DNA from: Patescibacteria group bacterium
GTDB lineage: Bacteria; Patescibacteriota; Minisyncoccia; Minisyncoccales; JAQTPW01
Length of the DNA: 64,000 nt
Assembly: GCA_043804755.1 (NCBI GenBank)
Contig: JAZDIT010000044.1
Coordinates: 24 to 64,023, forward strand
Direction: 5' to 3'
Shown here: positions 72 to 41,502 of the stretch, piece by piece
How positions within the stretch are numbered: position 1 is the stretch's first letter
Layout of the letters: each line of letters begins with the position of its first letter
Notes under the pieces: model-generated
Told to the model about the DNA's origin: nothing
The model's database searches: none
Seen by the model: only the letters and a program-made list of their open reading frames with translations
Position numbers and translations under genes: made by a program

Positions 72-482
72 ATGCCAACAGTAAGACAATTAATTAAAAA
101 AGGAAGGGACAAAAAAAAGAAGCATACAAGAACGCCGGCTTTAAAATCCGGTTTTAATCCGTTGAAAAACCGGCCGAAGAAATTTTTATCTCCGTTTAAA
201 AGAGGAGTGTGCCTGAAGGTTTTTACCGTTACTCCCAAGAAGCCTAATTCGGCGCTGAGAAAAGTCTGCAGAGTACGCCTCACGAATCAAATGGAAGTTA
301 CGGCTTATATCCCGGGAGAAGGTCATAATTTGCAGGAACACTCAATCGTTCTAATAAGGGGAGGAAGAGTCAAGGATTTACCGGGTGTCAGATATCACGT
401 TGTCAGAGGAGTTTTGGATACGACCGGAGTTGAAAACAGAAAACAGGAAAGATCAAAATACGGAGTAAAAATGGCAAAGTAA
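72..482 (+). CDS. rpsL: 30S ribosomal protein S12
   Basis: Full-length S12 match ([11 protein letters not shown]...[15 protein letters not shown]...); first gene of the str operon order. Confidence 0.95.
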
Positions 483-485
483 TCT

Positions 486-950
486 ATGTCAAAAAAGAAA
501 ACAAGAAAAATAATACCGCCGGACATGAAATACAATAACGTCACGGTCCAAAAATTCATCAATCAGGTTATGAAAGGCGGGAAAAAAACAATAGCCAAAA
601 AATTAGTTTATGGCGCTTTTGATATTTTGAAGGAAAAAACCAAAAAAGATCCTTTGGAAATTTTCGATTTGGCGATTAAAAACGCATCGCCGCTTCTTGA
701 GGTAAAACCCAAAAGAATCGGAGGGGCCACTTATCAGGTTCCGAGAGAAGTGAGAGGAGACAGAAAACTGACGCTTGCAATAAGATGGATAATCCAGGCG
801 ACCAAAGCCAAAAAAGGAGTTCCGTTTAAAATAAAATTAGCCGAGGAAATAACAAATGCTGCGAATAACACAGGATCAGCAGTGAGGAAAAAGGAAGATA
901 CTCACCGTATGGCCGAGGCCAACAGGGCCTTTGCTCACTTTGCCTGGTAA
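486..950 (+). CDS. rpsG: 30S ribosomal protein S7
   Basis: S7 family sequence and position between rpsL and fusA. Confidence 0.93.
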
Positions 951-955
951 GATTT

Positions 956-3061
956 ATGCCCAGACTTTATCCAATTGAGAAATACCGTGATTTCGGAATA
1001 ATAGCTCACATAGACGCCGGAAAAACTACAACTTCCGAGCGAGTTTTATTTTACACGGGATTAACCCATAAAATCGGCGACATTGACGAGGGTACGACAG
1101 TAATGGATTTCATGATTCAAGAAAGAGAAAGGGGGATCACGATACAGTCGGCAGCTACGACTTGTTTTTGGAAACCGAGAAAAGAATCGCAGGGTAAAGA
1201 AAACGAATACAGGTTAAATCTTATCGATACTCCCGGCCACATTGATTTTACGGCCGAAGTCCAGAGATCTTTGAGGGTTTTGGACGGAGCGGTTGTCGTT
1301 TTTGACGGAGTTGCCGGAGTTGAACCCCAGTCGGAAACCGTTTGGAGACAAGCCGATAAATTCGGAACGCCGAGAATTTGTTTCATAAACAAAATGGACA
1401 GGATGGGTGCCGATTTCGAGGCCAGTTTGAAATCGATTTGGCAAAAATTGACCCCGAATGCGGTTGCCCTCCAAATTCCGATAGGTGCACAGGAAGATTT
1501 TGCCGGAGTCATCGATCTGATGGATATGAAATCCTTGAGATTCCAGGGGGACATGGGAGAAATTGTTATTGAAGAAGAAATTCCCCAAGACCTTAAGGGG
1601 AAAGCCGCAGAGTGGAGAAATAAAATGATTGAAAAAATTGCGGCAGAAGATGAAATTTTGCTTGAGAAATTTTTGGCGAAAGAAGAAATATCTGTCGATG
1701 AAATGCGCAAAGTCTTAAGAAAATCCACCATTGCATGCAAACTGGTTCCGGTGCTTTGCGGTTCTTCGTTGAAAAATAAGGGAGTCCAGCCGGTGCTTGA
1801 TGCAGTTTGTTTCTATCTGCCAAGCCCCATAGATCTTCCTCCGGTAAAAGGTATAGATCCGAAAACCGGTCAGGAAACCCAGAGGAAGGCTGACGATTCG
1901 GAACCATTTTCAGCTCTTGCATTTAAAATTACGGCAGATCCTTATGTAGGAACGCTGACTTTTTTCAGAGTTTATTCCGGTACCTTGCTTAAAGGCTCAT
2001 ATCTTTTGAACACATCGACCGGTGAGAAAGAAAGAATCGGAAGAGTTCTGAGGTTGTATGCGAATGAAAGAGAAGAAGTCGAAGAGGTTTTTGCCGGAGA
2101 CATCGCAGCTACCGTCGGTCTGAAGAATACTTTTACCGGTCATACGTTGTGCGATGAAAATCATCCTATAATTTTGGAGAAAATTATATTCCCCGAACCG
2201 GTAATCTCCATCAAAATCGAACCTAAGACAAAAGCCGATCAGGAAAAAATGGGCATGGCTTTAAAGAAAATGTCCGAAGAAGATCCGACTTTCAAGGTCA
2301 AAGGGGATTTGGAAACGGGAGATACGGTTATTTCCGGAATGGGGGAATTACATCTTGACATAATTGTCGACAGGATGAAAAGAGAATTCAAGGTTGAAGC
2401 CAATGTCGGCAGGCCACAAGTTGCCTACAAAGAGACGATTCGTCAGGAAGCTGAAGCAGAAGGCAAATACATTAAGCAATCCGGCGGTCGCGGCCAGTAC
2501 GGACATGTCTGGCTGAGGGTTAAACCTAAGGAAAGGGGCCAGGGATTTGAATTTATAGATGGCATTAAGGGAGGAACGATACCGCGGGAATTCATACCTG
2601 CCGTTGAAAAGGGTGTGAAAGAAGCAATGGACAAGGGAGTCATCGCCGGTTATCCTTTCGTGGATGCGGAAGTGACTTTATACGATGGTTCATTCCATGA
2701 AGTTGATTCTTCAGAAGTCGCATTCAAAATCGCGGCTTCAATGGCTCTTCAGGAAGCGGCAAAAAGAGCAAAGCCGGTTTTATTGGAACCGATAATGAAA
2801 TTGGAAGTGATAGTCCCCGAAGAATTTTTCGGAGACGCGATAGGAGATTTATCATCAAGAAGAGGAAAAATCGAAGAAACAAAAGACAGGCTGAATCTGA
2901 AGGTAATCGACGTAAAGGTGCCTTTGTCGGAAATGTTCGGGTATGCGACGGCTTTGAGATCCTTGACAGAAGGCCGAGGAACTTTTACTATGGAATTTGA
3001 CCATTATGAAGAAGTCCCTCCGAATATCACGCAGGAAATAGTCGAGGGTAAGAGGAAATAA
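956..3061 (+). CDS. fusA: Elongation factor G
   Basis: GTPase motifs [18 protein letters not shown]; 701 aa EF-G architecture. Confidence 0.95.
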
Positions 3062-3149
3062 GGAGGGATTTACAACATTGACAAATCGTTTAAAATCACT
3101 AAAATAACATTATAACTTTAATAAGCTAAATAATTAAAAATACAAATCT

Positions 3150-4349
3150 ATGGCAGAAAAAGAAAAATTTTTGAGGGAAAAGCCTCACGTAAATATCGGA
3201 ACGATAGGCCACGTCGACCATGGTAAAACCACAACCGTGGCGGCGATTTTGCATGTTTTAAAACTGAATGGTTTTAAAGCAAACGAAAAAGGAGTCGATC
3301 AAATTGATGCTGCTCCCGAAGAGAAAGCAAGAGGATTGACGATTTCCATCTCGCATCTCGAATACGAGACTGCAAAAAGACACTATGCGCATATCGATTG
3401 CCCCGGCCACGCCGACTATATCAAAAACATGATTACCGGCGCCGCGCAGATGGATGGCGCAATTTTGGTGGTATCCGCTCCCGATGGCCCGATGCCTCAG
3501 ACGAGGGAACACATAATTTTGGCGAGACAGGTCGGATTGCCCGCTTTGGTAGTTTTTCTGAACAAGGTTGATGCGGTTGATGATCCGGAAATCATTGATT
3601 TGGTTGAAAGCGAGGTGAGAGAGCTTTTGAAGAAATACGAATTCCCCGGAGATGAAATTCCGATAATACGCGGATCCGCGCTGAAAGCAATCGCGGCCAC
3701 ATCGGCCGATGATCCTGCCGCAAAAGCGATTATGGACTTGATGAACGCGGTTGACACTTATATTCCCACACCGGTCCGTGAAACCGACAAGCCGTTTTTG
3801 ATGGCTGTCGAAGATGTGTTCACGATCGAAGGCAGGGGAACTGTCGCGACGGGAAGAATAGAAAGAGGAATTGTAAAACCCAATGACGAAGTTGAATTAG
3901 TCGGGATCAAGCCGACTTCCAAAACGACTGCAGTCAGCGTCGAAATGTTCAATAAAATGCTGGATGAAGGAATGGCGGGCGATAATGTCGGAATTTTGTT
4001 AAGAGGTTTGAAAAAAGAAGATGTGGAAAGAGGACAAGTCCTGGCAAAGCCGGGATCCAGTACTCCCCATGAAGAGTTTGATGGCAAGGTTTACGTATTG
4101 TCGAAGGAAGAAGGCGGAAGACATACTCCTTTCTTCACCGGCTATAAACCCCAGTTGTATTTCAGAACTACTGATATAACCGGAGATGTTACTTTGCCGG
4201 AAGGCACGGAAATGGTCATGCCCGGAGACACTGCGCAATTGAAAATAAAATTAATCGCTCCAATCGCCATGGAAGAAAACCAGAGATTCGCGATAAGAGA
4301 AGGAGGAAAGACGGTGGGTGCCGGAGTGATTACCAAGATAATAAAATAA
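3150..4349 (+). CDS. tuf: Elongation factor Tu
   Basis: [18 protein letters not shown] motifs; 399 aa. Confidence 0.96.
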
Positions 4350-4388
4350 GACCTGATTTTTTAGGAACGCCTTACCGATTTACGCAAA

Positions 4389-4724
4389 ATGGCAAAGCCG
4401 AAAACAGAAGCAACCGAAAACAAAGCAAAGATCCGCATCAAATTGCGGGCTTACGATCACAAAGTGATCGACAGTTCAGCAAAACAAATTGTTGAAACCG
4501 CTTTGCGCTATGGTGCCGAAGTTTCCGGGCCTGCGCCGCTGCCGACAGAAATCAACAAGTATACGGTAAACAGATCTTCCTTTGTCCATAAAGATGCGCG
4601 GGAACAGTTTGAAATGAGGATGCACAAGAGATTGATTGACATACTGAATCCGAATCAGAAAGTGATAGACGCCCTGATGAGCTTAAACCTTCCTGCAGGA
4701 GTGGACATTGAGATAAAAATGTAA
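4389..4724 (+). CDS. rpsJ: 30S ribosomal protein S10 (short N-terminal extension)
   Basis: [16 protein letters not shown]... S10 core; follows tuf. Confidence 0.9.
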
Positions 4725-4731
4725 TTGAAAA

Positions 4732-4755
4732 CCCGCCGCAAGGCGGGTTTTGGTT
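4732..4755 (+). terminator. Rho-independent terminator-like hairpin after rpsJ (CCCGCCGCAAGGCGGG + TTTTGGTTT)
   Basis: GC stem with GCAA loop followed by a T-run, 8 nt after the rpsJ stop. Confidence 0.55.
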
Positions 4756-4845
4756 TATACTTGAAATAAAATCGCATTCAGGATTTCTTTGATATTGGTT
4801 GACGGATATAGATTTATATTTTATCGTTTAAGAAAGGAGGGACGT

Positions 4846-4875
4846 ATGTCGTATTTTTATCTAGCTTCAGCGTGA
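4846..4875 (+). CDS. 9-codon upstream ORF (MSYFYLASA) with consensus ribosome-binding site; possible leader peptide
   Basis: AAGGAGG at 4834-4840, ATG 5 nt downstream, stop TGA at 4873-4875; lies inside the rpsJ-rplC non-coding insert. Confidence 0.3.
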   Translation: MSYFYLASA

Positions 4876-5024
4876 GGCTGCCCAAAACCGCAAGACTATC
4901 CAGGTATGTAATTTCTGATTGGCAACTAGTCTTGTCGCCGGTATTCAGCAGCCTAACCCAATATGCCCGTTTATCTGTCTGTTGAAACATACCAACAGCT
5001 CTAAACGGGTCCTTTTTATTTTTT

Positions 5025-5048
5025 CCGCCGAAAGGCGGGTTTTGGTTT
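5025..5048 (+). terminator. Second copy of the terminator-like hairpin (CCGCCGAAAGGCGGG + TTTTGGTTTATA)
   Basis: Near-identical 30-nt direct repeat of the 4732-4760 element. Confidence 0.45.
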
Positions 5049-5114
5049 ATAGCTTAAATTTACCCGACAGGATTAAGATGGGTTTTCTAAATATTCTTGA
5101 ACTGGGGAAAACTG

Positions 5115-5143
5115 TTGACATTATGTTTGGCTTAATATATACT
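5115..5143 (+). promoter_or_regulatory. Candidate sigma70 promoter for rplC and downstream genes (TTGACA-17-TATACT)
   Basis: Consensus -35 hexamer, 17-nt spacer, 5/6 match at -10; about 115 nt upstream of rplC. Confidence 0.45.
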
Positions 5144-5217
5144 TTCTTTATGAGTATACTATCTACATCCTTCGTCTGTTGACGAAAGATTAGAACAAGT
5201 ACTAACCGTTTTAATTC

Positions 5218-5244
5218 GCGGGGTTAGTGCCCCGTGTTTTGTTG
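5218..5244 (+). promoter_or_regulatory. Attenuator-like hairpin in the rplC leader (GCGGGG-TTAGTG-CCCCG + TGTTTTGTTG)
   Basis: GC stem plus T-rich tail, ending 14 nt before the rplC ATG. Confidence 0.3.
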
Positions 5245-5258
5245 AAGAAACAAAAAGA

Positions 5259-5849
5259 ATGAAATTCATCATAGGAAAAAAAGTCGGAATGACGCAAATG
5301 TTTGATGAAAAAGGGAATATAACACCCCTGACTTTGATTGAAGCCGGCCCATGCGAAGTTTTGCAGTTAAAGAATATGGAAAAAGATGGCTATGAAGCTA
5401 CTCAGATTGGTTTTCAAAAAATAGAAAAGGCAAAAAGAATCAAAAAACCGCAAACCAGCAAACCTTTCAAGTTTATGAAAGAATTCAAGGGAGAAAACCT
5501 GAAAGTCGGAGATAAAATAGACGTTTCGGTTTTTAAAGAAGGAGACAAGGTGAAAATATCCGGAATTTCAAAAGGAAAAGGTTTCCAGGGGCCGATGAAG
5601 CGCCATGGTTTTCATGGCAGAGCTTCGGTAAGCCACGGTACGAAACACGAATTGAGAACTCCGGGATCCACCGGCTCTTCAATGCCGGAGCACGTTGCCA
5701 AGGGAAAGAAAATGGCCGGTCACATGGGGGCCGAAAGAGTGAGCGTTAAGGGTTTGAAAATAATGAAAATTGATTTGGAGAATAATTTGATAGCAATAAA
5801 GGGAGCAGTCCCCGGAAGAAGGGGGACTTTATTGGAAATAAAAGGATAA
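5259..5849 (+). CDS. rplC: 50S ribosomal protein L3
   Basis: L3 family sequence (KKVGMTQMFDEKGN...). Confidence 0.93.
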   Translation: MKFIIGKKVGMTQMFDEKGNITPLTLIEAGPCEVLQLKNMEKDGYEATQIGFQKIEKAKRIKKPQTSKPFKFMKEFKGENLKVGDKIDVSVFKEGDKVKISGISKGKGFQGPMKRHGFHGRASVSHGTKHELRTPGSTGSSMPEHVAKGKKMAGHMGAERVSVKGLKIMKIDLENNLIAIKGAVPGRRGTLLEIKG

Positions 5850-6481
5850 TGGTTAAAATAACAGCTTACAACCAGGAAGGGGAAGAAACGACAGAAGTCC
5901 TTTTGCCGAAGGAGGTTTTTGAAGTTAAAATGAACCCGGATTTGATACACCAGATAATTGTTTCACAGCTGTCTAACCAAAGGCAGGTTATTGCCAGCAC
6001 CAAAACCAGAAGCGAGGTTTCGGGAGGAGGCAGAAAACCATGGAGACAGAAAGGAACGGGTCGCGCGAGGCACGGTTCGACCAGATCTCCTTTGTGGCGC
6101 CATGGCGGGATAACTTTTGGGCCGAGAAACAAGGTTGTTTTCAAAAGAGAAATTCCCGAAAAGATGAGAAAAACGGCTCTTTTTATAGCGTTATCGGATA
6201 AAGTAAAAGACAATCTGCTGATAGTTTTGGATGATTTAAAATTGGAAAAGACAAAGACCAAAATTATGGCAGGCATTTTAAATAAACTTCCCTTAAAGGG
6301 AAAAACAGCATTGATTGTTTTGCCGAAAATGGAAAAGAGTTTGATCTCGGCTTCCCGCAATATCCCCGGAATCGGCACAACTCAGGCCAAAGATCTGAAT
6401 TGTCTGGACGTGCTTTCATATAAATACCTGATTTTATTAAAGGACAGCATAAAAGTAATAAAGGAAATTCTTTGTAAATAA
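5849..6481 (+). CDS. rplD: 50S ribosomal protein L4
   Basis: L4 family; overlaps the rplC stop. Confidence 0.9.
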   Translation: MVKITAYNQEGEETTEVLLPKEVFEVKMNPDLIHQIIVSQLSNQRQVIASTKTRSEVSGGGRKPWRQKGTGRARHGSTRSPLWRHGGITFGPRNKVVFKREIPEKMRKTALFIALSDKVKDNLLIVLDDLKLEKTKTKIMAGILNKLPLKGKTALIVLPKMEKSLISASRNIPGIGTTQAKDLNCLDVLSYKYLILLKDSIKVIKEILCK

Positions 6482-6486
6482 AAGTT

Positions 6487-6879
6487 ATGGCTTTTAATAT
6501 TTTTAAAAAAGAGGAATCCGGTGCGAAAGAAGTTGCGGTTCCGAAAAGCGAGGAGAAAAAAGAAAAAACAGCGAGAACGCCGAAAGGAAAGAGGCCCGGT
6601 TTTGCCTGGAGGATTCTAAAAGCTGCGCATGTCACCGAAAAAGCAACCGATTTATCCAATAAGGACAAGTATATTTTCAACGTTTACAAGAATGCAAATA
6701 AAAACGAAATACGGAAAGAAGTAGAAAACATATACGGCGTAAATGTCGTTTCTGTGAACATAATCAACGTCCATGGAAAGAAAAGAAGATTGGGAAAGAC
6801 CATGGGAATCAAGCCGGGATACAAGAAAGCGATCGTCGGAATACAAAAAGGACAAAAAATAGAACTGATGCCGAGATAA
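6487..6879 (+). CDS. rplW: 50S ribosomal protein L23 (N-terminal basic extension)
   Basis: L23 core in the C-terminal 90 aa; operon position. Confidence 0.88.
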   Translation: MAFNIFKKEESGAKEVAVPKSEEKKEKTARTPKGKRPGFAWRILKAAHVTEKATDLSNKDKYIFNVYKNANKNEIRKEVENIYGVNVVSVNIINVHGKKRRLGKTMGIKPGYKKAIVGIQKGQKIELMPR

Positions 6880-6891
6880 TTTTAAACAAGT

Positions 6892-7683
6892 ATGGTTTAT
6901 TCGAAATTATTTACAAAAAAAGAACCCGAAAAAAGATTGCTTTTGTCTTTGAGAAGAAAGGCGGGACGCTCCACTTCATCGGGAAGAATAACGGTCAGGC
7001 ATCAGGGAGGCGGCGTGAAAAGACTTTACAGGATAATCGATTTCGGTCAGGAAAAAATAAACGTTCCGGGCAAAATTTCGGCCATTGAATACGATCCCAA
7101 CAGAACTTCTTTCATAGGTTTGGTAGAATATAATGACGGCGATAAAAGATATGTTATTTTGGCCAAAAATTTAAATGTGGGAGATTCAGTAATTTGTGCC
7201 GATAATACGGAATTGAAAATCGGCAATCGGACAAAACTGAAAAATATACCAATCGGTACGGAAGTTTATAATATAGAAATCGAGCCCGGAAAAGGCGGAA
7301 AACTCGTGCGGGGAGCGGGAACTGCAGCAAAAGTTATCGCCCAGGAGCCTCCGTTTACGCATTTGGAAATGCCGTCGGGGGAAAGCAGAAAATTTCCTCA
7401 GGAAAGTTTTACTTCATTGGGAGTAGTTTCGCACGAAAAGCACACATTCGAAATTTTGGGTAAAGCAGGTCTTAACAGAAAGAAAGGAATCAGGCCGACA
7501 GTACGCGGAACCGCGATGAATCCCGTTGACCACCCCCACGGAGGGGGAGAAGGAAAGACAACGACCGGGTTGAAGTATTCGAAGACGCCCTGGGGTAAGC
7601 CGGCACGGGGAGTCAAAACCAGAAAGAGATTTTGGACAGACAGATTTATTCTTAAGAGAAGACAAAAAAAGAACAAGAAATAA
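6892..7683 (+). CDS. rplB: 50S ribosomal protein L2
   Basis: L2 motifs (GRNxxGxITxRHxGGG, MNPVDHPHGGGEG). Confidence 0.95.
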   Translation: MVYSKLFTKKEPEKRLLLSLRRKAGRSTSSGRITVRHQGGGVKRLYRIIDFGQEKINVPGKISAIEYDPNRTSFIGLVEYNDGDKRYVILAKNLNVGDSVICADNTELKIGNRTKLKNIPIGTEVYNIEIEPGKGGKLVRGAGTAAKVIAQEPPFTHLEMPSGESRKFPQESFTSLGVVSHEKHTFEILGKAGLNRKKGIRPTVRGTAMNPVDHPHGGGEGKTTTGLKYSKTPWGKPARGVKTRKRFWTDRFILKRRQKKNKK

Positions 7684-7704
7684 GTTTTAATATTCAAAAT
7701 AAAC

Positions 7705-8043
7705 ATGTCTAGATCACTTAAAAAAGGTCCCTTTGTCGATCAAAGACTTCTGGAAAAAATTCAGAAGCTGAAACCGGATTCAAAGGATATCATAAAAACC
7801 TGGAAAAGAGCCTGTTCCATTACGCCGGAAATGGTTGGTTTTACTTTCGGAGTGCATAACGGAAAGGATTTCATAACCGTAAAAGTGAATGAAGATATGG
7901 TAGGCCACAAACTGGGCGAGTTTTCCCCGACGACTAAATTTTCAAGACATGGAGGAAGAATGCAAAGGGAATTGGAATCCAAAGTGGTTGAAAAAGAGGC
8001 CGTAAAGGTTGAAGAAGTAAAGAAAGAACCTAAAGCAAAATAA
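7705..8043 (+). CDS. rpsS: 30S ribosomal protein S19 (C-terminal Lys/Glu-rich extension)
   Basis: S19 core ([11 protein letters not shown]...HNGK...). Confidence 0.92.
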
Positions 8044-8095
8044 GAACCTGCGCAAGCGTAGAACCTTGATTCTTCGCTCCGCTCAGAAAAAAATT
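8041..8095 (+). repeat. Intercistronic palindromic repeat unit (variant), rpsS-rplV junction
   Basis: TAAGAACCTGCGCAAGCGTAGAACCTTGATTCTTCGCTCCGCTCAGAAAAAAATT-ATG; member of the family seen at six loci. Confidence 0.8.
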
Positions 8096-8620
8096 ATGAT
8101 TGCCACCGCAAAGCTTAAATATTTAAGGATAGCTCCCAGAAAAGTCAGGCTCGTAGCGGATTTGATAAGAGGAAAAAGAACTGATAGGGCTCAGGCCGTT
8201 TTGAGCTTTGCGAACAAAAAATCGGCACTAATTATCCTTAAACTTTTAAAACAGGCGATAGCCAACGCAAAAAACAATTTGCATCTGGACGAGTCAAATT
8301 TATACATATCGAAAATAACAGTTGACGGAGGACCTATGCTGAAAAGATTCCGGCCGCGAGCCAGAGGGTCAGCTTATGAAATTCAGAAAAAAACTTCGCA
8401 TATCCTGATCGTCCTCGATGAAATTGAAAAAAGAGGGAAAAAAGAAAAAATCGTCAGAGAACCTGTAAAGGCGGAAGAAGAAGTGGCCGCTGAAAAACCG
8501 CAGGAAAAATCCGGTGAGGAAGTGACGGCGAAAAAATCGAAAATGAAAGTGGAAAAAGAAATCGCAAGGCCGAGAACAGGAAAGGGAACCACTAAAATTT
8601 TCAGAAGGAAATCTTTTTAG
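8096..8620 (+). CDS. rplV: 50S ribosomal protein L22 (C-terminal Lys/Glu-rich extension)
   Basis: Start moved to the ATG at 8096 (MIATAKLKYLRIAPRKVRLVADLIRG); the track's TTG start at 8066 lies inside the repeat. Confidence 0.9.
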   Translation: MIATAKLKYLRIAPRKVRLVADLIRGKRTDRAQAVLSFANKKSALIILKLLKQAIANAKNNLHLDESNLYISKITVDGGPMLKRFRPRARGSAYEIQKKTSHILIVLDEIEKRGKKEKIVREPVKAEEEVAAEKPQEKSGEEVTAKKSKMKVEKEIARPRTGKGTTKIFRRKSF

Positions 8621-8623
8621 AAT

Positions 8624-9277
8624 ATGACACACAAAGTTCACCCTAAAATTTTTCGGATAAGAGTAACGGCGGATTGGGATTCGAGATGGCTGGATAAAAA
8701 GAGATTTGTTTACAATTTGGAAGAGGATTATAGAATCCGCGAATTTTTAAATAAAAAACTGGCCAAAGTCGGAATAGAAAAAATTGAAATCGAGAGAGCA
8801 CCTGGAAAGGTTAATGTAATCTTATCCAGCGCGCGGCCTGGTTTGATTTTCGGAAGAGGAGGTGCGGGCATCGAAGAAATAAAGAAGGAAATAAGCAGAA
8901 AGATATTGAAAAAAGTGGCCGGGAAAGTTCCCGAATTCAGGCTGGAAGTGAAGGAAATCAGAAATCCCTGGTTGTCCTCGACCTTATCTGCACAATATAT
9001 AGCCCAGCAGCTTGAAAAAAGAATGCCGTTCAGGAGAGTTTTGAAGCAGGTTATGGGTAAAATTACCGCGAATAAAGAGGTAAAGGGAGCAAGGATAAAT
9101 GTCGGAGGCAGATTGGACGGATCGGAAATAGCAAGAAAGGAAGTCATGAAACAGGGTCGGCTTCCCCGCCAGACGATAAGAGCCGACATAGATTATGGAA
9201 CCGCGGAAGCTAATTGTACTTATGGAATAATCGGGATTAAAATCTGGATATATAAAGGAGAAAAATTCGAATCATAA
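8624..9277 (+). CDS. rpsC: 30S ribosomal protein S3
   Basis: S3 family, KH domain. Confidence 0.93.
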   Translation: MTHKVHPKIFRIRVTADWDSRWLDKKRFVYNLEEDYRIREFLNKKLAKVGIEKIEIERAPGKVNVILSSARPGLIFGRGGAGIEEIKKEISRKILKKVAGKVPEFRLEVKEIRNPWLSSTLSAQYIAQQLEKRMPFRRVLKQVMGKITANKEVKGARINVGGRLDGSEIARKEVMKQGRLPRQTIRADIDYGTAEANCTYGIIGIKIWIYKGEKFES

Positions 9278-9298
9278 TGAAAAATACAAACGAAATTC

Positions 9299-9703
9299 AT
9301 GTTGCAACCAAAAAGAGTAAAACATAGAAAATGGAAAAAAGGAGTATCAATCGGTATTGAAACGCGGGGGACGACTTTGGTTTTCGGAACGTACGGATTG
9401 AAAAGCATGGGTTCATCTTTTATTACGGCAAGGCAATTGGAAGCAGCAAGACGCACCATTTTGAGATATTTGAAAAAGGGCGGAAAATTTTGGATAAGAA
9501 TTTTTCCCGATAATCCGGTTACAAGCAAAGGATCGGAAGTTCCGATGGGAGGCGGGAAAGGAATGGTTGACCATTACGCGGCCCACGTGAATCCTGGAAG
9601 AATAATTTTCGAACTGGAAGGGTTGAAGGAGGAGGTTGCCAAAGTGGCTTTGGGCATGGCTGCCGATAAATTGTCGGTAAAAACAAAATTTGTTAAAAGA
9701 TAA
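9299..9703 (+). CDS. rplP: 50S ribosomal protein L16
   Basis: L16 family (MLQPKRVKHRK...). Confidence 0.93.
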   Translation: MLQPKRVKHRKWKKGVSIGIETRGTTLVFGTYGLKSMGSSFITARQLEAARRTILRYLKKGGKFWIRIFPDNPVTSKGSEVPMGGGKGMVDHYAAHVNPGRIIFELEGLKEEVAKVALGMAADKLSVKTKFVKR

Positions 9704-9745
9704 GAATCTTACCTTCGGTAAGAGTCTTGATTCCATAAATTTCAC
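9701..9745 (+). repeat. Degenerate intercistronic repeat unit, rplP-rpmC junction
   Basis: TAAGAATCTTACCTTCGGTAAGAGTCTTGATTCC...; UUCG-loop hairpin flanked by AGAAYCTT direct repeats. Confidence 0.6.
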
Positions 9746-9771
9746 TACGTTCAATTTATGAAAATAAAAAA

Positions 9772-9960
9772 ATGAAAATCAGCGAATTACGTCAAAAATC
9801 AAAAGATGAATTGAAAAAAATTTCTGATGATAGCCGGGAGAAATTGAGGCAGTTGAGATTTGATTTAGCCTCAGGCAAAGTGAAGAATGTACGCGAGATA
9901 CGTCAGATAAAAAAAGACATCGCGAGAATAATGACATTATTTAAACAAAATCTTAAATAA
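9772..9960 (+). CDS. rpmC: 50S ribosomal protein L29
   Basis: L29 family, 62 aa, operon position. Confidence 0.88.
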   Translation: MKISELRQKSKDELKKISDDSREKLRQLRFDLASGKVKNVREIRQIKKDIARIMTLFKQNLK

Positions 9961-9965
9961 TATTT

Positions 9966-10295
9966 ATGGCAAAAAAGCAACTAAAAGGAAAAATTGTTTC
10001 GAATAAAATGCTGGAAACGGTCGTTGTTAAGATTGTAAGGATAAAAGAACACAAAAAATACAAAAGGCGTTACAAGACGCAAAAGAAATACAAGGCCGAT
10101 ACCCTGAAAAAGGTTTATAATGTCGGTGATACGGTTTTGATAGAAGAATGCAGCCCGATTTCCAAAGACAAAAAATGGAAAGTCATTAAAAGATTGGCGG
10201 AAAGCAAGTTGATTGAGGCGGAAGAGATTATTGAGCCGGAAATCGAAAAAAAAGAGGAAATAAAGACAGAAGAAAAAACAACAGAGGTAAAATAA
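9966..10295 (+). CDS. rpsQ: 30S ribosomal protein S17 (C-terminal acidic extension)
   Basis: S17 core (GKIVSNKMLETVVVKIVR...). Confidence 0.9.
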   Translation: MAKKQLKGKIVSNKMLETVVVKIVRIKEHKKYKRRYKTQKKYKADTLKKVYNVGDTVLIEECSPISKDKKWKVIKRLAESKLIEAEEIIEPEIEKKEEIKTEEKTTEVK

Positions 10296-10296
10296 A

Positions 10297-10668
10297 ATGA
10301 TACAACTGAGAACAAGATTAAAAGTCGCCGATAATACGGGAGCGAAAATCCTGCAGTGTTTTCATATTTTAGGAGGAAGCAAAAGGAAATGGGGCCAACT
10401 GGGCGACATGATAGTCGGCGTCGTAAAAGAAGCGGAGCCCAGGAGATTGGTAAAAAAACATGAGGTAATCAGGGCGGTTATCATAAGGCAAAAGAAATTA
10501 TACAAGAGACGGGACGGTTCATATATCCGTTTTGACGACAATGCCTGTGTCATTTTGGAAGGAAAAACCAAGGAACCGAAAGGGGGACGAATTTTAGGTC
10601 CCGTTGCAAAGGAAGTGAAAGAAAAGGGATTTGACAATGTTGCGGCTTTGGCCGAAGAGTTAATATAA
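10297..10668 (+). CDS. rplN: 50S ribosomal protein L14
   Basis: MIQLRTRLKVADNTGAK... L14. Confidence 0.95.
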   Translation: MIQLRTRLKVADNTGAKILQCFHILGGSKRKWGQLGDMIVGVVKEAEPRRLVKKHEVIRAVIIRQKKLYKRRDGSYIRFDDNACVILEGKTKEPKGGRILGPVAKEVKEKGFDNVAALAEELI

Positions 10669-10776
10669 GAACCTTCGCAAAGCGAAGAACCTTGGATGTC
10701 TGCGGCAAATAAGAACCTTGCCTTCGGCAAGAACCTTGTCTTTTCACTGCGGCTCAGAAATAAAATATTCAAAATT
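10666..10776 (+). repeat. Two tandem intercistronic repeat units, rplN-rplX junction
   Basis: TAAGAACCTTCGCAAAGCGAAGAACCTTGG... then TAAGAACCTTGCCTTCGGCAAGAACCTTGTC...GGCTCAGAAATAAAAT. Confidence 0.85.
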
Positions 10777-11082
10777 ATGAAATTGAAAAAAGGAGATACA
10801 GTTTTAATAATTTCGGGAAAATACCGTGGTAAAAAGGGAAAAGTTTTGGTTTCTTTTCCTGAAGCGGAAAAGGTTTTGGTTGAAGGGATTAATATAAGGA
10901 AAAAGCACCAGAAGGCAAAAAAAGAGGGACAAAAGGGTCAGATAATAGAGATGCCTGCTCCCATTTCGGTTTCGAATGCGATGCTGGTTTGTCCCAAATG
11001 CGGCCAGGCCACGAGAATTGGTTCAAAATTAGTTGAAAAAAAGAGATACAGGAGCTGCAAGAAATGCGGCCAAGAAATATAA
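10777..11082 (+). CDS. rplX: 50S ribosomal protein L24 with a C-terminal Cys4 zinc ribbon
   Basis: Start moved to the ATG at 10777 (MKLKKGDTVLIISGKYRGKKGKV); C-terminus CPKCGQ...CKKCGQ; the track's N-terminal extension is a translated repeat. Confidence 0.9.
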   Translation: MKLKKGDTVLIISGKYRGKKGKVLVSFPEAEKVLVEGINIRKKHQKAKKEGQKGQIIEMPAPISVSNAMLVCPKCGQATRIGSKLVEKKRYRSCKKCGQEI

Positions 11083-11134
11083 GAACCTTGCCTACGGCAA
11101 GAACCTTGTTTCTTCGCTGAGGCTCAGAAATAAA
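11080..11134 (+). repeat. Intercistronic repeat unit, rplX-rplE junction
   Basis: TAAGAACCTTGCCTACGGCAAGAACCTTGTTTCTTCGCTGAGGCTCAGAAATAAA-ATG. Confidence 0.85.
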
Positions 11135-11689
11135 ATGACATATTTGCAAGAAAAATATAAAAAAGAAGTTATTCCTGCAATGAAGGAAAAATTCGGATTC
11201 AAAAGTCCGATGGCGGTTCCCAGAATTGAAAAAATAGTCGTGAATACCGGTTTCGGAAGGGGAGTTGCCGGAAAGTCTTCTGAAGATCAAAAGAAAATAC
11301 AAAAGGGTATTTCGGACGATTTGGATTTGATTTGTGGCCAAAAGTCAATTTTAAAACCGGCCAAAAAATCCATAGCTAGTTTTAAAATTAGAGAAGATAT
11401 GCCCATAGGAGCCGCAGTTACCTTAAGGAGGAAAAAAATGTATGATTTTCTTGAAAGGCTAATTCAAATAACATTGCCGAGAATGCGCGACTTTCGGGGA
11501 GTGGATTCAAAGGCGGTTGATAAAAGAGGAAATTTGACTTTGGGGATAAAAGAACATATTGTTTTTCCGGAAGTATCACCCGAAAGAGCAAAAAACATCT
11601 TTGGATTGGAGATTACCATCGTTATGAATGCGAGAAACAAGGAAGAGGGCGTACAATTATTAAAATTAATGGGTTTTCCTTTAAAGTAA
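11135..11689 (+). CDS. rplE: 50S ribosomal protein L5
   Basis: Start moved to the ATG at 11135 (MTYLQEKYKKEVIPAM...); L5 family. Confidence 0.92.
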   Translation: MTYLQEKYKKEVIPAMKEKFGFKSPMAVPRIEKIVVNTGFGRGVAGKSSEDQKKIQKGISDDLDLICGQKSILKPAKKSIASFKIREDMPIGAAVTLRRKKMYDFLERLIQITLPRMRDFRGVDSKAVDKRGNLTLGIKEHIVFPEVSPERAKNIFGLEITIVMNARNKEEGVQLLKLMGFPLK

Positions 11690-11734
11690 ATTAAATAATA
11701 AACTTTCTGTTAATTTCTTATTATATCCGAAATT

Positions 11735-11920
11735 ATGGCAACGAAATCACAAATCGAAAAATCTAAAAAAAAGCCTAAATTCAAATGCAGGGTTGTCAGA
11801 AGATGCTTCAGATGCGGCAGAAAAAGAGCATATATGCGAAAATTCGGATTATGCAGGGTTTGTTTCAGGGAAATGGCCAACAAAGGATTGATCCCAGGGA
11901 TCAGGAAATCATCTTGGTAA
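11735..11920 (+). CDS. rpsN: 30S ribosomal protein S14, zinc-binding type Z
   Basis: 61 aa, [26 protein letters not shown]. Confidence 0.93.
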
Positions 11921-11959
11921 AAGAACAGAAAACAAAAATAATAAATTTCAAACATCACC

Positions 11960-12346
11960 ATGGATAAAATCTCCGAAATGCTAACCTCAATAAGAAATGC
12001 ACAAGCCGTGTTGAAACCGGCGATTTCTGTTCCTTATTCGGATTTGAAATACGAAATCGCAAAGATACTGGAAAAGGAAGGATTTGTCGAAAAAATTGAG
12101 AAAAAAGGGAAAAAAGTCAAAAAAACCTTTGAAATAAATTTGAAATACAAAGACGGATATCCAGCAATTTCCGGCCTGAAAAAAGTTTCAAAGCCTGGGC
12201 AAAGGATTTACGTAAATTACAAGGAGATTAAGCTGGTTATGGGAGGATTCGGATTTTCCGTCATTTCCACCTCAAAAGGCGTTTTGACCAACAAAGAAGC
12301 GAGAAAACAAAAAGTCGGAGGAGAATTAATTTGTGAAGTTTGGTAA
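11960..12346 (+). CDS. rpsH: 30S ribosomal protein S8
   Basis: S8 family. Confidence 0.92.
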   Translation: MDKISEMLTSIRNAQAVLKPAISVPYSDLKYEIAKILEKEGFVEKIEKKGKKVKKTFEINLKYKDGYPAISGLKKVSKPGQRIYVNYKEIKLVMGGFGFSVISTSKGVLTNKEARKQKVGGELICEVW

Positions 12347-12347
12347 C

Positions 12348-12914
12348 ATGAGCAGAATAGGGAAAAAGCCAATAAAAATACCAGAAAAAGTTGAGGTTAA
12401 AATAGATTGTGTCACACCAACGACCCAAAAGATTTTCGTTTCCGGACCGAAGGGTGAATTGTCTTTGGATGTTCCGAAAGAAGCCAGAGCCGAAATAAAA
12501 GAAGGCAGTATATTCGTTTATCCGCAGGTTGAAACGAAAAAAACTAAAGCAATGTGGGGATTATTTAGAGCGTTGATTTTTAATCTGATAGAGGGCGTAA
12601 CAAAAGGATATGAAAAGAAGCTGGAAATTGAGGGTATAGGTTATGGCGCTCAGGCGATAGGAGCAGAATTGGAATTAAAAGTCGGATATATTAATACTAT
12701 AAAGTTAAAGGCTCCCGCCGGAATAAATTTTTCGACTGAAAAGAACGTAATTACCGTTTCAGGGATAGATAAGGAATTGGTCGGCCAGATTGCGGCGAAA
12801 ATCAGGAAAATAAAACCAGTCGAACCCTATAAAGGGAAAGGAATAAAATATGTGGGAGAAGTTGTCAGGAGAAAAGTCGGTAAGAGAGTAGCTGCAACCA
12901 CTCCCGGAGCTTAA
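12348..12914 (+). CDS. rplF: 50S ribosomal protein L6
   Basis: Start at the ATG at 12348 ([12 protein letters not shown]); L6 family. Confidence 0.92.
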
Positions 12915-12919
12915 AAAAT

Positions 12920-13312
12920 ATGTTAGAAAGAAAAGGCAAAAGAATAAGGCGTCATAAAAGAATCAGAGCCAAAATAACCGGCACGAAAGAGAGGCCACGT
13001 CTTGGAGTTTTCTGTTCAAATGCACATATCTATGCGCAATTGATAAATGACGAAAAGGGCAAGGTTTTGGCGATTGCAAGCGATCTCAAATTGAAGAAGC
13101 AGCAAACCGGACAAAAAAGCGAAGTCAAAAAAGAAGGAGAGATAAAAAGAACGGGAAAGGTGGCCAAGGCTTTTGAAGTGGGCAAATTATTGGCAAAATC
13201 GGCCATGGAGCTGAAAATCGAAAATGTTGTTTTTGACAGAGGAGGTTTCCAGTATCACGGGGTGGTTAAAGCTTTGGCAGACGGAGCCAGAGAGGGAGGA
13301 TTAAAATTTTAA
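12920..13312 (+). CDS. rplR: 50S ribosomal protein L18
   Basis: L18 family. Confidence 0.9.
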
Positions 13313-13329
13313 ATTAAACATCAGAGAAA

Positions 13330-13872
13330 ATGGAAAACACGCAAAAAGAAACAAGTAAAAAAACGGACAGGCCTCAATTTTCGATGAACAGGCGGTCGTT
13401 TTCTCCTAAACCGGCTTCGGAGTTTGATTCGAAACTTCTGGATTTGGCGAGGGTTACAAGAGTCACTAAAGGTGGAAAACAAATGAGATTCCGTGCCGTT
13501 GTCGTCATCGGAGACAAGATAAAAAGAGTCGGCGTAGGAGTTGCAAAGGGTCTGGATGTCCAGCAAGCCGTTGAAAAAGCGACAAGGATGGCCAGAAAGA
13601 ACATGATTGAAGTGCCGATAGTCCAGGGTTCAATTCCGCACGAAGTTTATGCGAAATACGGACCGGCTGAAGTTTTACTCCGTCCGCAAAGGAAAGGAAG
13701 AGGTTTGGTGGCGGGAGGAACCGTAAGGGTTATTTGCGCTTTGGGAGGAATAAAGGATATTTCTTCGAAAATTTTAGGAAGAACGGGAAATAAATTGAAC
13801 AATGCAATGGCGACAATCATAGCATTAAAAAAGATTAAACATGGAATTACACCAGTTAAGGCCAACTCATAA
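13330..13872 (+). CDS. rpsE: 30S ribosomal protein S5
   Basis: S5 family (dsRBD plus S5 C-terminal domain). Confidence 0.92.
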   Translation: MENTQKETSKKTDRPQFSMNRRSFSPKPASEFDSKLLDLARVTRVTKGGKQMRFRAVVVIGDKIKRVGVGVAKGLDVQQAVEKATRMARKNMIEVPIVQGSIPHEVYAKYGPAEVLLRPQRKGRGLVAGGTVRVICALGGIKDISSKILGRTGNKLNNAMATIIALKKIKHGITPVKANS

Positions 13873-14272
13873 GCGGAAAAAAACAAAAAGAATAGGAAGA
13901 GGAGGCGTCCATGGATTCAATTGCGGCAGGGGAGCCAAGGGCCAGAATTCGAGAGCCGGAAAGAAATTCAAGCCGATTATCCGCGAATTGATTAAAAGAT
14001 ATCCCAAACTGAGAGGTTACAGATCCAAGAAAATTAATGATAAGCCCGCGGTTTTGAATTTGGAAATTCTGGACAAAAAGTTTGAAAGTGGGGATAAAAT
14101 ATCGCCGAAAGTGTTGATAGAAAAAAGAATAATCCGTAGAATAAATGGTAGAGTCCCCAAAGTCAAGATTCTGAGCAAGGGGGAGTTGAAAAAAGCCTTG
14201 ATTTTCGAAAATATCTCAGTTTCAAAAATCGCAAAAGAGAAAATCGAGAAAGCCGGCGGCGAAATAAAATAG
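13841..14272 (+). CDS. rplO: 50S ribosomal protein L15 (follows S5 directly; no L30 gene)
   Basis: MELHQLRPTHKRKKTKRIGRGG... L15; overlaps the rpsE 3' end by 32 nt. Confidence 0.9.
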   Translation: MELHQLRPTHKRKKTKRIGRGGVHGFNCGRGAKGQNSRAGKKFKPIIRELIKRYPKLRGYRSKKINDKPAVLNLEILDKKFESGDKISPKVLIEKRIIRRINGRVPKVKILSKGELKKALIFENISVSKIAKEKIEKAGGEIK

Positions 14273-14293
14273 AGGAATCGTTTCAAAAAATAA

Positions 14294-15574
14294 ATGAATT
14301 GGTTCAATAAATTAATCCAAATTTTCAAAACACCGGATCTGAGGAAAAAAATCCTCTTTGTATTGGGGATTTTTGCTATTTTCAGGATAATGGCGAATAT
14401 TCCCGTCCCGGGGATCGACGCCGAAAATATCAAGAATTTCTTCAATCAATTCCAGGTTTTCGGACTTTTGAATGCTTTCACCGGAGGAGCTTTGGATAAT
14501 CTTTCAATCATTATGTTAGGATTAGGGCCTTATATCACCGCCACGATTATTTTTCAGTTGCTGACGATGATTTTTCCCCAACTCGAAAAAATATACAAGG
14601 AAGAAGGAGCAGCCGGACGCCAAAAATTCAATCAGTATTGCCGGATAGGCGCCGTACCTTTGGCCGCTCTTCAGGCCTATGCAATGCTTATGCTTTTCCA
14701 AAGACAGAACGTCATCGGCACATTGTCGCCGAGCGTACTTTTAACTTCTATAGTCACAATTACCGCGGGCGCAGTATTTTTGATGTGGCTCGGAGAATTG
14801 ATTTCCGAAAAAGGAATAGGAAACGGAGTTTCTCTCCTTATTTTTGCCGGAATCGTAGCCGATTTTCCGAACAGTTTACGGCAGATACTTGTCGCCTGGG
14901 ACCCTTCTAAAATTCTTTTTTATATTTTATTTTTCACGATGTCTCTGCTTATCATAGCTGGCGTCGTTTTAATCAATGAGGCAAGAAGAAACATACCCGT
15001 TTCTTACGCCAAAAGAGTTCGGGGCACGAAAATGTACGGGGGCGTTTCCACCTACCTGCCTCTGAACGTAAATCCGGCAGGTGTAATCCCCATAATTTTC
15101 GCATTGTCGATTTTAATGATTCCCGGAATGGTGGGAAGTTTCTTGAGCGGGGCGAGCGGCCAAGTCGGGAACATTGCAAAAGGCGTTGCCGATTTTTTCC
15201 AGGATCCCTGGACGAACGGTATATTTTATTTCGTACTGGTCGTCGTTTTCACTTACTTTTATACCGCAGTCACGTTTGATCCCAAAGCCATTTCGGAAAA
15301 TCTTCAAAAAATGGGTGGATTTGTGCCGGGAATTCGTCCCGGGCAGTCAACCGCAAGTTTCATGTATTATATCCTGAATCGAGTGCTGTTAATCGGAGCT
15401 TTATTTTTGGGCACGATCGCCATCATGCCTTCGATTGTCCAGGGCATAACCAATATCCAGCAATTCCAATTTTTAGTCGGGGGCACTTCGCTACTCATCG
15501 TTGTTTCCGTTGTTCTGGAGACCATGAGGCAGATAAAAGCCCAGCTTCAGATGAGGGATTATGAAACTTTCTAA
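14294..15574 (+). CDS. secY: Preprotein translocase subunit SecY
   Basis: 10-TM SecY family; spc operon position. Confidence 0.95.
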   Translation: MNWFNKLIQIFKTPDLRKKILFVLGIFAIFRIMANIPVPGIDAENIKNFFNQFQVFGLLNAFTGGALDNLSIIMLGLGPYITATIIFQLLTMIFPQLEKIYKEEGAAGRQKFNQYCRIGAVPLAALQAYAMLMLFQRQNVIGTLSPSVLLTSIVTITAGAVFLMWLGELISEKGIGNGVSLLIFAGIVADFPNSLRQILVAWDPSKILFYILFFTMSLLIIAGVVLINEARRNIPVSYAKRVRGTKMYGGVSTYLPLNVNPAGVIPIIFALSILMIPGMVGSFLSGASGQVGNIAKGVADFFQDPWTNGIFYFVLVVVFTYFYTAVTFDPKAISENLQKMGGFVPGIRPGQSTASFMYYILNRVLLIGALFLGTIAIMPSIVQGITNIQQFQFLVGGTSLLIVVSVVLETMRQIKAQLQMRDYETF

Positions 15575-16238: not shown

Positions 16239-16251
16239 CCTTTTGGGAAAC

Positions 16252-17061: not shown

Positions 17062-17066
17062 GAACT

Positions 17067-17090
17067 GCGCCGGGCATCCGGCGCTTTTTA
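17067..17090 (+). terminator. Rho-independent terminator after map (GCGCCGGGCATCCGGCGC + TTTTTA)
   Basis: Perfect GC hairpin followed by a T-run. Confidence 0.7.
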
Positions 17091-17136
17091 ATTTTAAGAT
17101 TGATTTAAGATCTGCAAAACGGTAAAATAACATAAT

Positions 17137-18910: not shown

Positions 18911-18913
18911 TTT

Positions 18914-41177: not shown

Positions 41178-41249
41178 CGCGGGGTAGAGAACGGGTTATC
41201 TCGCGACTCTCATAAGGTCGAGAAGTGGGTTCAAGTCCCACCCCCGCAA
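41178..41249 (+). tRNA. tRNA-Met (CAU), initiator-like
   Basis: Hand-folded cloverleaf: acceptor CGCGGGG/CCCCGCA with C1:A72 mismatch, A11:U24 in the D stem, anticodon loop CUCAUAA, T arm GTGGG-TTCAAGT-CCCAC. Confidence 0.65.
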
Positions 41250-41295
41250 CAATCTGACTTCTCCGCCTAATAGGCGCTAAAAAGCCTCAGACCAG

Positions 41296-41367: not shown

Positions 41368-41379
41368 TAAAGAAAACGA

Positions 41380-41455: not shown

Positions 41456-41502
41456 CAACATAAAATATCCTTTTTGGATGTTTTTTGTTTTTGTTGGAAA
41501 AT

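Follow-up and report, generated by a model that had tools for sequence, protein, structure and literature searches.

Why do rpsJ and rplC lie far apart in the ribosomal protein (r-protein) cluster of a Patescibacteria group bacterium, and does the DNA between them form one regulatory element or several? The window analysed here, 64,000 nucleotides (nt) of contig JAZDIT010000044.1 from the metagenome-assembled genome (MAG) GCA_043804755.1, carries a str/S10/spc cluster in the order rpsL-rpsG-fusA-tuf-rpsJ, gap, rplC-rplD-rplW-rplB-rpsS and further genes. The spacers after rplC are very short, with rplD (whose product has a Pfam L4 match), rplW, rplB, and rpsS packed tightly behind it, and the 534-nt gap between the end of rpsJ (4724) and the start of rplC (5259) is the sole large spacer of the cluster. 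An earlier note on this DNA had given the same distance and listed five signals in the gap, all of which are present at approximately the positions it assigned to them: (i) two near-identical terminator-like direct repeats, (ii) an upstream open reading frame (uORF) behind a ribosome-binding site, (iii) a nested inverted repeat, (iv) a promoter, and (v) a GC-rich hairpin followed by a T tract. It had taken these for a single structured element of ~530 nt, which they are not: signals i-iii belong to a private, unconserved 5' part comprising the first 390 nt, whereas signals iv and v belong to the last ~145 nt, made up of a promoter and a conserved leader. With moderate confidence, we consider the gap to be the boundary of two transcription units that consists of three layers, namely the rpsJ terminator, a private insertion, and the rplC promoter with its leader, and the leader to be a new candidate r-protein leader, absent from Rfam, that acts by transcription attenuation and probably serves to limit the production of ribosomal proteins in one Patescibacteria group. 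The conserved part has the following features.

5115-5143, + strand: promoter of the rplC operon, TTGACA-17-TATACT, 11 of 12 consensus positions
5150-5244, + strand: conserved leader RNA of the rplC operon, ~95 nt, with a putative start near 5150
5153-5203, + strand: 5' domain of the leader, composed of P1, an internal loop (ACUR / MAYA), and the P2/P3 hairpin (5162-5194)
5199-5207, + strand: predicted antiterminator strand X, GUACUAACC, the P1 3' strand plus four more bases
5222-5230, + strand: predicted antiterminator strand Y, GGUUAGUGC, which takes in two Gs of the terminator 5' stem, the complete loop, and the two bases that begin the 3' stem
5217-5244, + strand: attenuator hairpin, CGCGGGGU-UAGU-GCCCCGUG followed by UUUUGUUG, ending 14 nt 5' of the rplC ATG
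5259-5849, + strand: rplC (uL3), first gene of the putatively regulated operon, its L3 100% identical to a Patescibacteria MAG protein at NCBI

The promoter, already recognised in the earlier note, is conserved in relatives: TTGAC(A/G)-17-TATA(C/G/A)T with a fixed 17-nt spacing occurs in all 30 related loci whose upstream sequence is long enough. Perfect TTGACA-N17-TATAMT sites occur twice in the window, one being the rplC promoter; the other perfect match, of the TTGACA-N17-TATAAT type, is located at 54686-54714. A second promoter at the downstream GAGTATACT box was considered and rejected, as its -35-like spacing is unconserved and the first -10 box lies 11-18 nt from GAGTATACT. The space between the leader terminator and the rplC ATG is too short for another promoter, and this essential operon must therefore be transcribed through the terminator. 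With terminator read-through as the only route to expression, conditional termination is the natural interpretation.

Relatives retrieved through their L3 proteins (loci L081, L082, L083, and L084, with 85%, 78%, 77%, and 74% L3 identity to the window, respectively) carry a near-identical block of promoter and leader directly 5' of rplC and have nothing upstream of the promoter in common with the window. The shared block reads promoter, AUGAGUAUACURUCUAU, variable hairpin, AUAGMAYAAGUACUAAYC, short linker, ACGGGGUUAGUGCCCCGU, U-run, ATG. A metagenome scan with the pattern AGTACTAA-N(4-34)-GGGGTTAGTGCCCC, which fixes 22 nt, recovered 29 stretches, 28 with the full architecture and one (L091) that is a chance match. 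L3 identity to the window among the leader-bearing loci is 50-85%. Across 29 distinct leader sequences 35 columns are invariant, and mean pairwise identity is 79% in the leader vs 71% in the first 450 nt of rplC. The terminator core ACGGGGUUAGUGCCCCGU with its U-run is present in all related loci, and wherever a stretch extends to the rplC start the leader ends 8-26 nt ahead of the ATG; the exceptions are L083 and L100, in which a palindromic element between the leader terminator and the ATG brings the separation to 132-144 nt. A covariance model (R1) built from the 29 distinct sequences gave a score of 86.5 bits at 5133-5247 of the window and located the leader once in each of 32 other loci, at 64-115 bits; it found no further copy in the 64-kb window and no match in representatives of other phyla. 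The leader tracks rplC and not rpsJ: the gene upstream is a Laminin_G_3 protein gene in L081, unrelated open reading frames (ORFs) precede it in L083, and rpsJ is 5.6 kb away in L105. The synteny comparison proposed in the earlier note thus places promoter, leader, and terminator hairpin directly 5' of rplC in 32 loci and marks the 5' part of the gap as lineage-specific. A scan of genome contigs with L3 added relatives of at most 50% identity among the matches listed, and a scan of viral contigs for relatives gave no match.

The leader is a compact structure in which P1 and P2, the latter with or without P3, are followed by a single terminator hairpin and nothing overlaps the start codon. P1 pairs AGUAU (5153-5157) with GUACU (5199-5203) and the internal loop reads ACUA / ACAA in the window, where the region 5150-5262 has a minimum free energy (MFE) of -35.6 kcal/mol (z = -5.8). 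The GC hairpin with T tract that the earlier note had seen 14 nt before the rplC ATG proved to be an eight-pair hairpin at 5217-5236 with six GC pairs, followed by TTTTGTTG. Over the 29 leader sequences, 92% of cells are paired, vs 31-58% with slid partners, and the observed covariation score was reached by none of 500 shuffles. The compensatory changes are located in P2, where four pairs have changes on both sides; one of these reads AU in 15, UA in 8, GC in 3, and CG in 1 sequence. Length and sequence of the P2 hairpin vary in individual folds, and the invariant boxes on its two sides are 46-63 nt apart end to end, a shift of 17 nt; such variable spacing with a hairpin that is kept argues for an RNA rather than a DNA operator. 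In L101 (2392-2501) and L111 (1540-1648) the 5' box TATACTATCTATGAAGTATACTATCTAT is duplicated, which places a second TATACT/UCUAU segment between promoter and P1. In the window only, the predicted terminator-state fold (5207-5261) contains two more helices, one between the U-run and AACAAAAA just 5' of the ATG and an outer one between CGUUUU (5207-5212) and the start-codon region; together, as modelled on this single sequence, they would occlude the rplC start as well.

Strand X is perfectly complementary to strand Y over 9 bp, and this helix competes with both P1 and the terminator. In each of the 29 sequences, all nine positions of the consensus GUACUAAYC pair with GGUUAGUGC, and the one variable position of X (C or U) is always opposite G. 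When the transcript was truncated after GGGGUUAGUGC, all 28 sequences folded (MFE) with the nine antiterminator pairs formed and P1 open; the full-length leader favours P1 and the terminator by 0.8-9.4 kcal/mol (mean 4.9). The X:Y duplex has an energy of -14.0 kcal/mol vs -9.5 ± 2.0 kcal/mol in shuffles (P = 0.03). The loop of the terminator is invariant, which would not be required of a plain terminator.

These observations fit an attenuation mechanism that can be outlined as follows. The rpsL-rpsG-fusA-tuf-rpsJ unit would stop at the intrinsic terminator at 4728-4759, at which 292 nt of DNA would have been inserted or duplicated, leaving a 35-nt direct repeat. The rplC-rplD-rplW-rplB operon would be transcribed from its own near-consensus promoter through the ~95-nt leader, starting, we infer, near 5150. 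Surplus free r-protein encoded by the operon would bind the domain formed by P1, the internal loop, and P2 and keep P1 closed; GUACUAACC would then be sequestered, the terminator at 5217-5236 would form, and transcription would stop before rplC. Once this protein is titrated off by rRNA, GUACUAACC could pair with GGUUAGUGC as soon as the latter is transcribed, and the resulting antiterminator would permit read-through into rplC. Negative feedback is the direction of regulation that this scheme implies, and its ligand is probably either uL4, which would parallel E. coli, or uL3, whose gene comes first in the operon. Mimicry of rRNA gave no clue to the ligand, as the 8-9-nt matches to E. coli 23S rRNA (GGUUAGUGC at 2318 and GUACUAAU at 2877, H101) are no better than those of shuffled leaders; the literature confirmed on this point only that uL3 stabilises domains 0 and VI.

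Several results weigh against an attenuator of this kind. A gapless 9-bp complement to the terminator region, with G-U allowed, occurs in 18% of shuffled upstream sequences, so that helix length (P = 0.18) does not distinguish the antiterminator, which rests on duplex energy (P = 0.03) and conservation. Sequence changes are absent from P1, from the terminator stem, and from the antiterminator, which consequently have no covariation support. Invariance of the 22 nt fixed in the metagenome pattern is partly by construction in the 28 loci so recovered; the four L3-derived loci are independent of it. Mimicry of rRNA is unsupported in the comparison made with E. coli 23S. Five relatives with 67-70% L3 identity (L086, which belongs to Nealsonbacteria, L089, and L119-L121) are without the 5' domain and have only the hairpin and U-run; either the sensor domain is clade-restricted or a bare hairpin is sufficient in these organisms. 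In L108 (465-587; L3 50% identical) X, Y, and the terminator are kept while the 5' domain is different. Finally, the strong folding of the insertion further upstream (z ~ -3.7), its U-tracts on the + strand only, and its AAGGAGG-ATG could indicate a real small transcription unit, a point taken up below.

Details of the divergent relatives are as follows. L108 keeps AGUACUAACC, the GGGGUUAGUGCCCC terminator, and the promoter, and another hairpin, CGUCAUUGGAAAAUGACG, replaces P1/P2. In the relatives that do not have the motif (L086 1149-1500; L089 1393-1500; L119 407-566; L120 191-305; L121 1403-1500), rpsJ and rplC are spaced by 98-352 nt, and a GC-rich hairpin followed by a U-run lies immediately 5' of the rplC ATG. 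L089 retains CUAACC...GGGUUAG and has an R1 score of 23 bits. Judged from these sequences, an attenuator-like hairpin before rplC may be general in this branch of Patescibacteria.

A constitutive role of the leader is one alternative. The RNA might be a fixed element of the 5' untranslated region whose 5' stem and start-proximal hairpin shield a highly expressed mRNA from RNases or support Shine-Dalgarno-independent initiation on a U-rich tract, with the operon expressed by steady read-through of a weak terminator. It would agree with this that rplC, as most genes of the cluster, is without a Shine-Dalgarno motif, that hairpin and U-run precede the rplC ATG also where the 5' domain is missing, that the U-run is short and interrupted, and that the antiterminator has no covariation behind it. 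A stabilising hairpin, however, needs no invariant 6-nt loop, nor does it need an invariant complementary 9-mer upstream or an internal loop 50 nt away, all preserved where L3 has diverged to 50-60% identity; that P1, antiterminator, and terminator compete with one another in all 28 sequences is left unexplained as well. We regard a constitutive element as unlikely.

The attenuator reading concerns the last ~145 nt of the gap; the first 390 nt contain the following, preceded by the genes of the upstream unit.

72-482: rpsL
486-950: rpsG
956-3061: fusA
3150-4349: tuf
4389-4724, + strand: rpsJ, with a Pfam S10 match
4728-4759, + strand: terminator of the rpsL-rpsG-fusA-tuf-rpsJ unit, a 10-bp hairpin (AAAACCCGCC-GCAA-GGCGGGTTTT) with six GC pairs and a T-rich tail
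4733-4767, + strand: first copy of the direct repeat, 35 nt
4768-5024, + strand: unique segment between the repeats, 257 nt, a lineage-specific insertion most likely with no conserved function
4799-4827, + strand: promoter-like site TTGACG-17-TATCGT, 9 of 12 positions, weak, unconserved, possibly by chance
4834-4875, + strand: AAGGAGG followed by a nine-codon ORF (MSYFYLASA), no homologue in relatives
4875-4954: long imperfect hairpin (nested inverted repeat), outer arms GGCTGC (4876-4881) and GCAGCC (4948-4953)
4965-5024, + strand: second hairpin (4965-5009) followed by the T-rich tract TCCTTTTTATTTTTT, terminator-like on the + strand only
5025-5059, + strand: second copy of the direct repeat, containing a terminator-like hairpin (5024-5039) followed by TTTTGG

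The rpsJ terminator begins 4 nt past the rpsJ stop and is symmetric, so that it could act in both directions. Homologous hairpins are located behind rpsJ in L106, L109, L113, and L116, and a different terminator takes this position in L084. The two copies of the direct repeat are 89% identical and 292 nt apart; the 27-nt core of the repeat has only these two sites in 64 kb, with a chance expectation of 0. The earlier note had described the two copies as near-identical terminator-like elements ~290 nt apart, and both do score as hairpin plus T-run; its start for the first copy (4732) is off by one. The region 4733-5059 represents a 292-nt insertion bounded by the 35-nt repeat, and within it lie the uORF, a pair of long hairpins, and a further terminator. 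In a 2-kb region there are seven terminator-like sites (2.5 ± 1.6 expected) and seven promoter-like sites (3.2 ± 1.7 expected), and the three best terminator-like sites on the + strand of this region are the two repeat copies and the hairpin at 5217-5236. In effect, as read from the sequence, the insertion appears to add two + strand terminators ahead of the rplC promoter.

The uORF is present as described (ATG at 4846, TGA at 4873-4875, 5 nt behind AAGGAGG at 4834-4840). AAGGAGG occurs 21 times in the window (12 ± 3.6 expected), and since the heptamer is frequent and r-protein genes here are mostly without a Shine-Dalgarno motif, AAGGAGG-ATG is weak evidence that a gene is present. Most genes of the cluster (window 72-19000) show no recognisable Shine-Dalgarno motif in the 25 nt next to the start, including rplC, rpsJ, tuf, and fusA, and translation initiation in the source organism seems to be largely Shine-Dalgarno-independent. 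The nested inverted repeat exists too, although it extends to ~4954 and not to 4945 as had been stated. The fold of 4860-5050, which the earlier note had suggested examining, is more stable than all of 200 shuffles on both strands (z = -3.7 on the + strand, -3.85 on the - strand).

Searches with the insertion returned nothing. The segment 4768-5024 and the second repeat copy have no similarity to any of the 122 loci compared or to the rest of the window; outside the promoter and leader, the rpsJ terminator itself is the only sequence of the gap shared with these loci (in L106, L109, L113, and L116, as above). No counterpart exists at more than 30 related loci, and phage and plasmid collections gave no match, and a phage or plasmid origin was rejected. 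The longest ORF of the insertion (58 amino acids, minus strand) is unannotated in this MAG and has no homologue among 5.8 billion proteins, and translated searches (tblastx) against the compared loci gave only noise, so that neither a real protein gene nor a degraded one, an outcome the earlier note had named as contradicting its proposal, is in evidence. A tandem duplication or pseudo-leader was likewise rejected: the local alignment of 4768-5024 with 5060-5320 scores 28, the shuffle mean is 32.3, 244 of 300 shuffles match or exceed the observed score, similarity ends at 35 nt, and the resemblance by eye of ATGTCGTATTTTTATCTAG to ATGAGTATACTATCTA is no better than in shuffles. A transposable or integrative element would fit the direct repeat, but there is no recombinase, no ORF with homologues, and no second copy in the window or the compared loci; the repeat analysis reported no terminal inverted repeat for the 4733-5059 segment. 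ARAGORN detected neither a tRNA nor a tmRNA in the gap. Scans with Rfam 15 (4227 models), also suggested in the earlier note, yielded no family anywhere in the gap: at gathering thresholds only tRNAs were found in the window and six relatives, and E-value scans gave at most 28 bits, compared with thresholds of 37-128, mostly driven by terminators.

As the segment matches nothing in relatives, signals i-iii are read as an insertion at the operon boundary, private to the lineage and most likely without a conserved role. The earlier note had held a lack of structure conservation to count against its proposal, and the 5' 390 nt, unconserved in relatives, fall short on exactly this point. Its suggestion of a small inserted element between the duplicated hairpins fares better and fits a 35-nt repeat bounding 257 nt that no relative has; its extension to a small RNA (sRNA) or uORF unit is without comparative support.

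Such a unit, a functional small gene at ~4799-5045 encoding an sRNA of ~200 nt or a mini-ORF or leader peptide with its own promoter and tandem terminators, would make sense of the promoter-like site at 4799-4827, the AAGGAGG placed 5 nt before an ATG, the strong folding (z = -3.7), the two hairpin and U-tract terminators facing the + strand, and the 35-nt direct repeat on both flanks. The promoter, though, has a match of just 9 out of 12, AAGGAGG turns up often in the window in a genome in which Shine-Dalgarno motifs are unusual, and folding of the inverted repeats is as strong on one strand as on the other and thus a trait of the DNA itself. Related loci, the window, and phage, plasmid, and protein databases hold no homologue, Rfam gave no match beyond terminator-driven chance ones, and the segment is missing from the closest relative, L081 (L3 85% identical). 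A small gene at this position therefore strikes us as doubtful.

A private insertion is in keeping with what is found at this junction elsewhere. Where both genes are on the same contig, the distance from rpsJ to rplC in relatives ranges from 183 nt to 5.6 kb and is occupied by unrelated cargo. L084 exemplifies the compact state, with rpsJ stop, terminator, promoter, leader, and rplC start within 183 nt. RelB antitoxin/YafQ toxin pairs are located in the gap of L093, L095, L110, and L114 (2872-3404 in L114), L105 has a 5.6-kb block (1114-6723) with about eight ORFs, and other loci have assorted small ORFs. In these sequences the junction behaves as an insertion hotspot that tolerates insertions across the clade. 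A palindromic repeat, TCTAACGGGGTTGACCCCGTTAGA, is found in L082 (2743-2756 and 2856-2869), L083 (2981-2994), and L106 (2620-2633), with a variant in L100; it is the palindromic element that separates leader terminator and rplC ATG in L083 and L100, one of the L082 copies overlaps the -35 box, and the repeat is absent from the window.

Further accounts of the leader were weighed. It might sense a signal other than an r-protein, such as a small molecule, an alarmone, an ion, or a trans-acting RNA, and so resemble a riboswitch; it has the usual layout of a sensor closed by P1 followed by an antiterminator/terminator expression platform, and its conserved unpaired nucleotides sit in the internal loop. 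As a sensor it would be very small, a single internal loop of ~4 + 4 nt with no multi-helix junction or pseudoknot, and its sole gene context is one r-protein operon, for which knowledge of r-protein leaders (PMC3616713, PMC7247131) points to autogenous control; we deem this very unlikely. It is also rather improbable, if slightly less so, that the leader is a minimal riboswitch-like or RNA-responsive switch tying the r-protein operon to physiology in ultra-small, host-dependent Patescibacteria, or that the insertion is a new sRNA or mini-ORF module taking over the operon boundary. That a transcription factor uses the invariant boxes as DNA operators just 3' of the promoter and in this way represses the rplC operon is the least credible account and most improbable, for although AGTATACT and AGTACT are perfect DNA palindromes, both boxes are invariant and within ~+5 to +60 of the putative start, and GAGTATACT includes a -10-like TATACT, the distance between the boxes varies by 17 nt with hairpin length, GAGTATACT lies at a variable 11-18 nt from the -10 box, each box could pair with the other and with the terminator loop, and hairpin pairing is kept by compensatory changes, a property of RNA.

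Elsewhere in the window, the L23 gene (6487-6879) encodes 130 amino acids with a Lys/Glu-rich N-terminal extension of ~35 amino acids; L23 length in relatives is 126-161 amino acids. A cluster of three tRNA genes at 41178-41456 (two tRNA-Met CAT, one tRNA-Asp GTC) comprises the only RNA genes detected in the window by Rfam or ARAGORN.

Regulatory RNAs of the Candidate Phyla Radiation (Patescibacteria) are, to our knowledge, almost undescribed, and a search of the literature turned up no paper that describes r-protein leaders in this group. In this lineage rpsJ is uncoupled from the remainder of the S10 operon, and the boundary is now a landing site for accessory DNA, including toxin-antitoxin modules. 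The ~95-nt leader offers a compact test case, a P1/antiterminator/terminator switch that is testable by mutation, and could reveal how bacteria with reduced genomes balance r-protein and rRNA synthesis. For annotation, a model of the leader could flag the start of the rplC operon in many MAGs.

Control of S10-type operons by their own products is mechanistically understood only in Gammaproteobacteria, and the RNA responsible has not been found elsewhere (PMC3616713). In E. coli, the S10 leader acts by L4/NusA-dependent attenuation and by translational repression; it lies upstream of rpsJ and has five hairpins, HA-HE, one of which overlaps the S10 start (PMC3616713). The present leader shares with it an operon containing rplC-rplD-rplW-rplB-rpsS, an upstream hairpin domain with a terminator hairpin right before the first cistron, and the expected logic of negative feedback by an encoded primary rRNA-binding protein. 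Its position differs, 3' of rpsJ and directly 5' of rplC in the window and 32 loci, as does its architecture of two domains with an apparent 9-bp antiterminator instead of five hairpins with no classical antiterminator, and comparison of the two leaders detected no similarity in sequence or model. Promoter and hairpin do belong to a functional, attenuator-like leader, and the comparison with the E. coli S10 attenuator made in the earlier note holds as a functional analogy; the two leaders are not homologous, given the location after rpsJ and the different architecture. By analogy, then, the present leader would work like the E. coli S10 leader and is not a member of that family, from which position and architecture exclude it.

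Other r-protein leaders resemble it in one respect or another. The S10 r-leader of Firmicutes/Clostridia (Yao et al. 2007), as represented in PMC7247131, is a candidate leader of the bacterial S10 operon outside Proteobacteria; according to the same account it lies upstream of rpsJ, and the published S10-Clostridia alignment does not contain the invariant boxes. The L4-Archaeoglobi candidate (Eckert & Weinberg 2020, PMC7247131) is located, as here, upstream of rplC-rplD-rplW-rplB, with L4 proposed as ligand from prior knowledge; it is archaeal, had no cmscan match, and its published alignment is likewise without the boxes, which were absent from the published r-leader alignments of S10-Clostridia, L4-Archaeoglobi, and 21 others. 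Riboswitch-type platforms use the same device, in which the P1 3' strand is also the antiterminator 5' strand, the nascent RNA adopts the antiterminator, and the full-length RNA adopts the terminator; known metabolite aptamers are far more complex, and the gene context here points to a protein ligand. The closest mechanistic analogue is the B. subtilis infC-rpmI-rplT leader (PMC1865079), which differs in its operon, its ligand (L20), its length (~200 nt), and its rRNA-mimicking L20 sites and is not homologous, and in which, as proposed here for rplC, protein binding upstream chooses between antiterminator and terminator.

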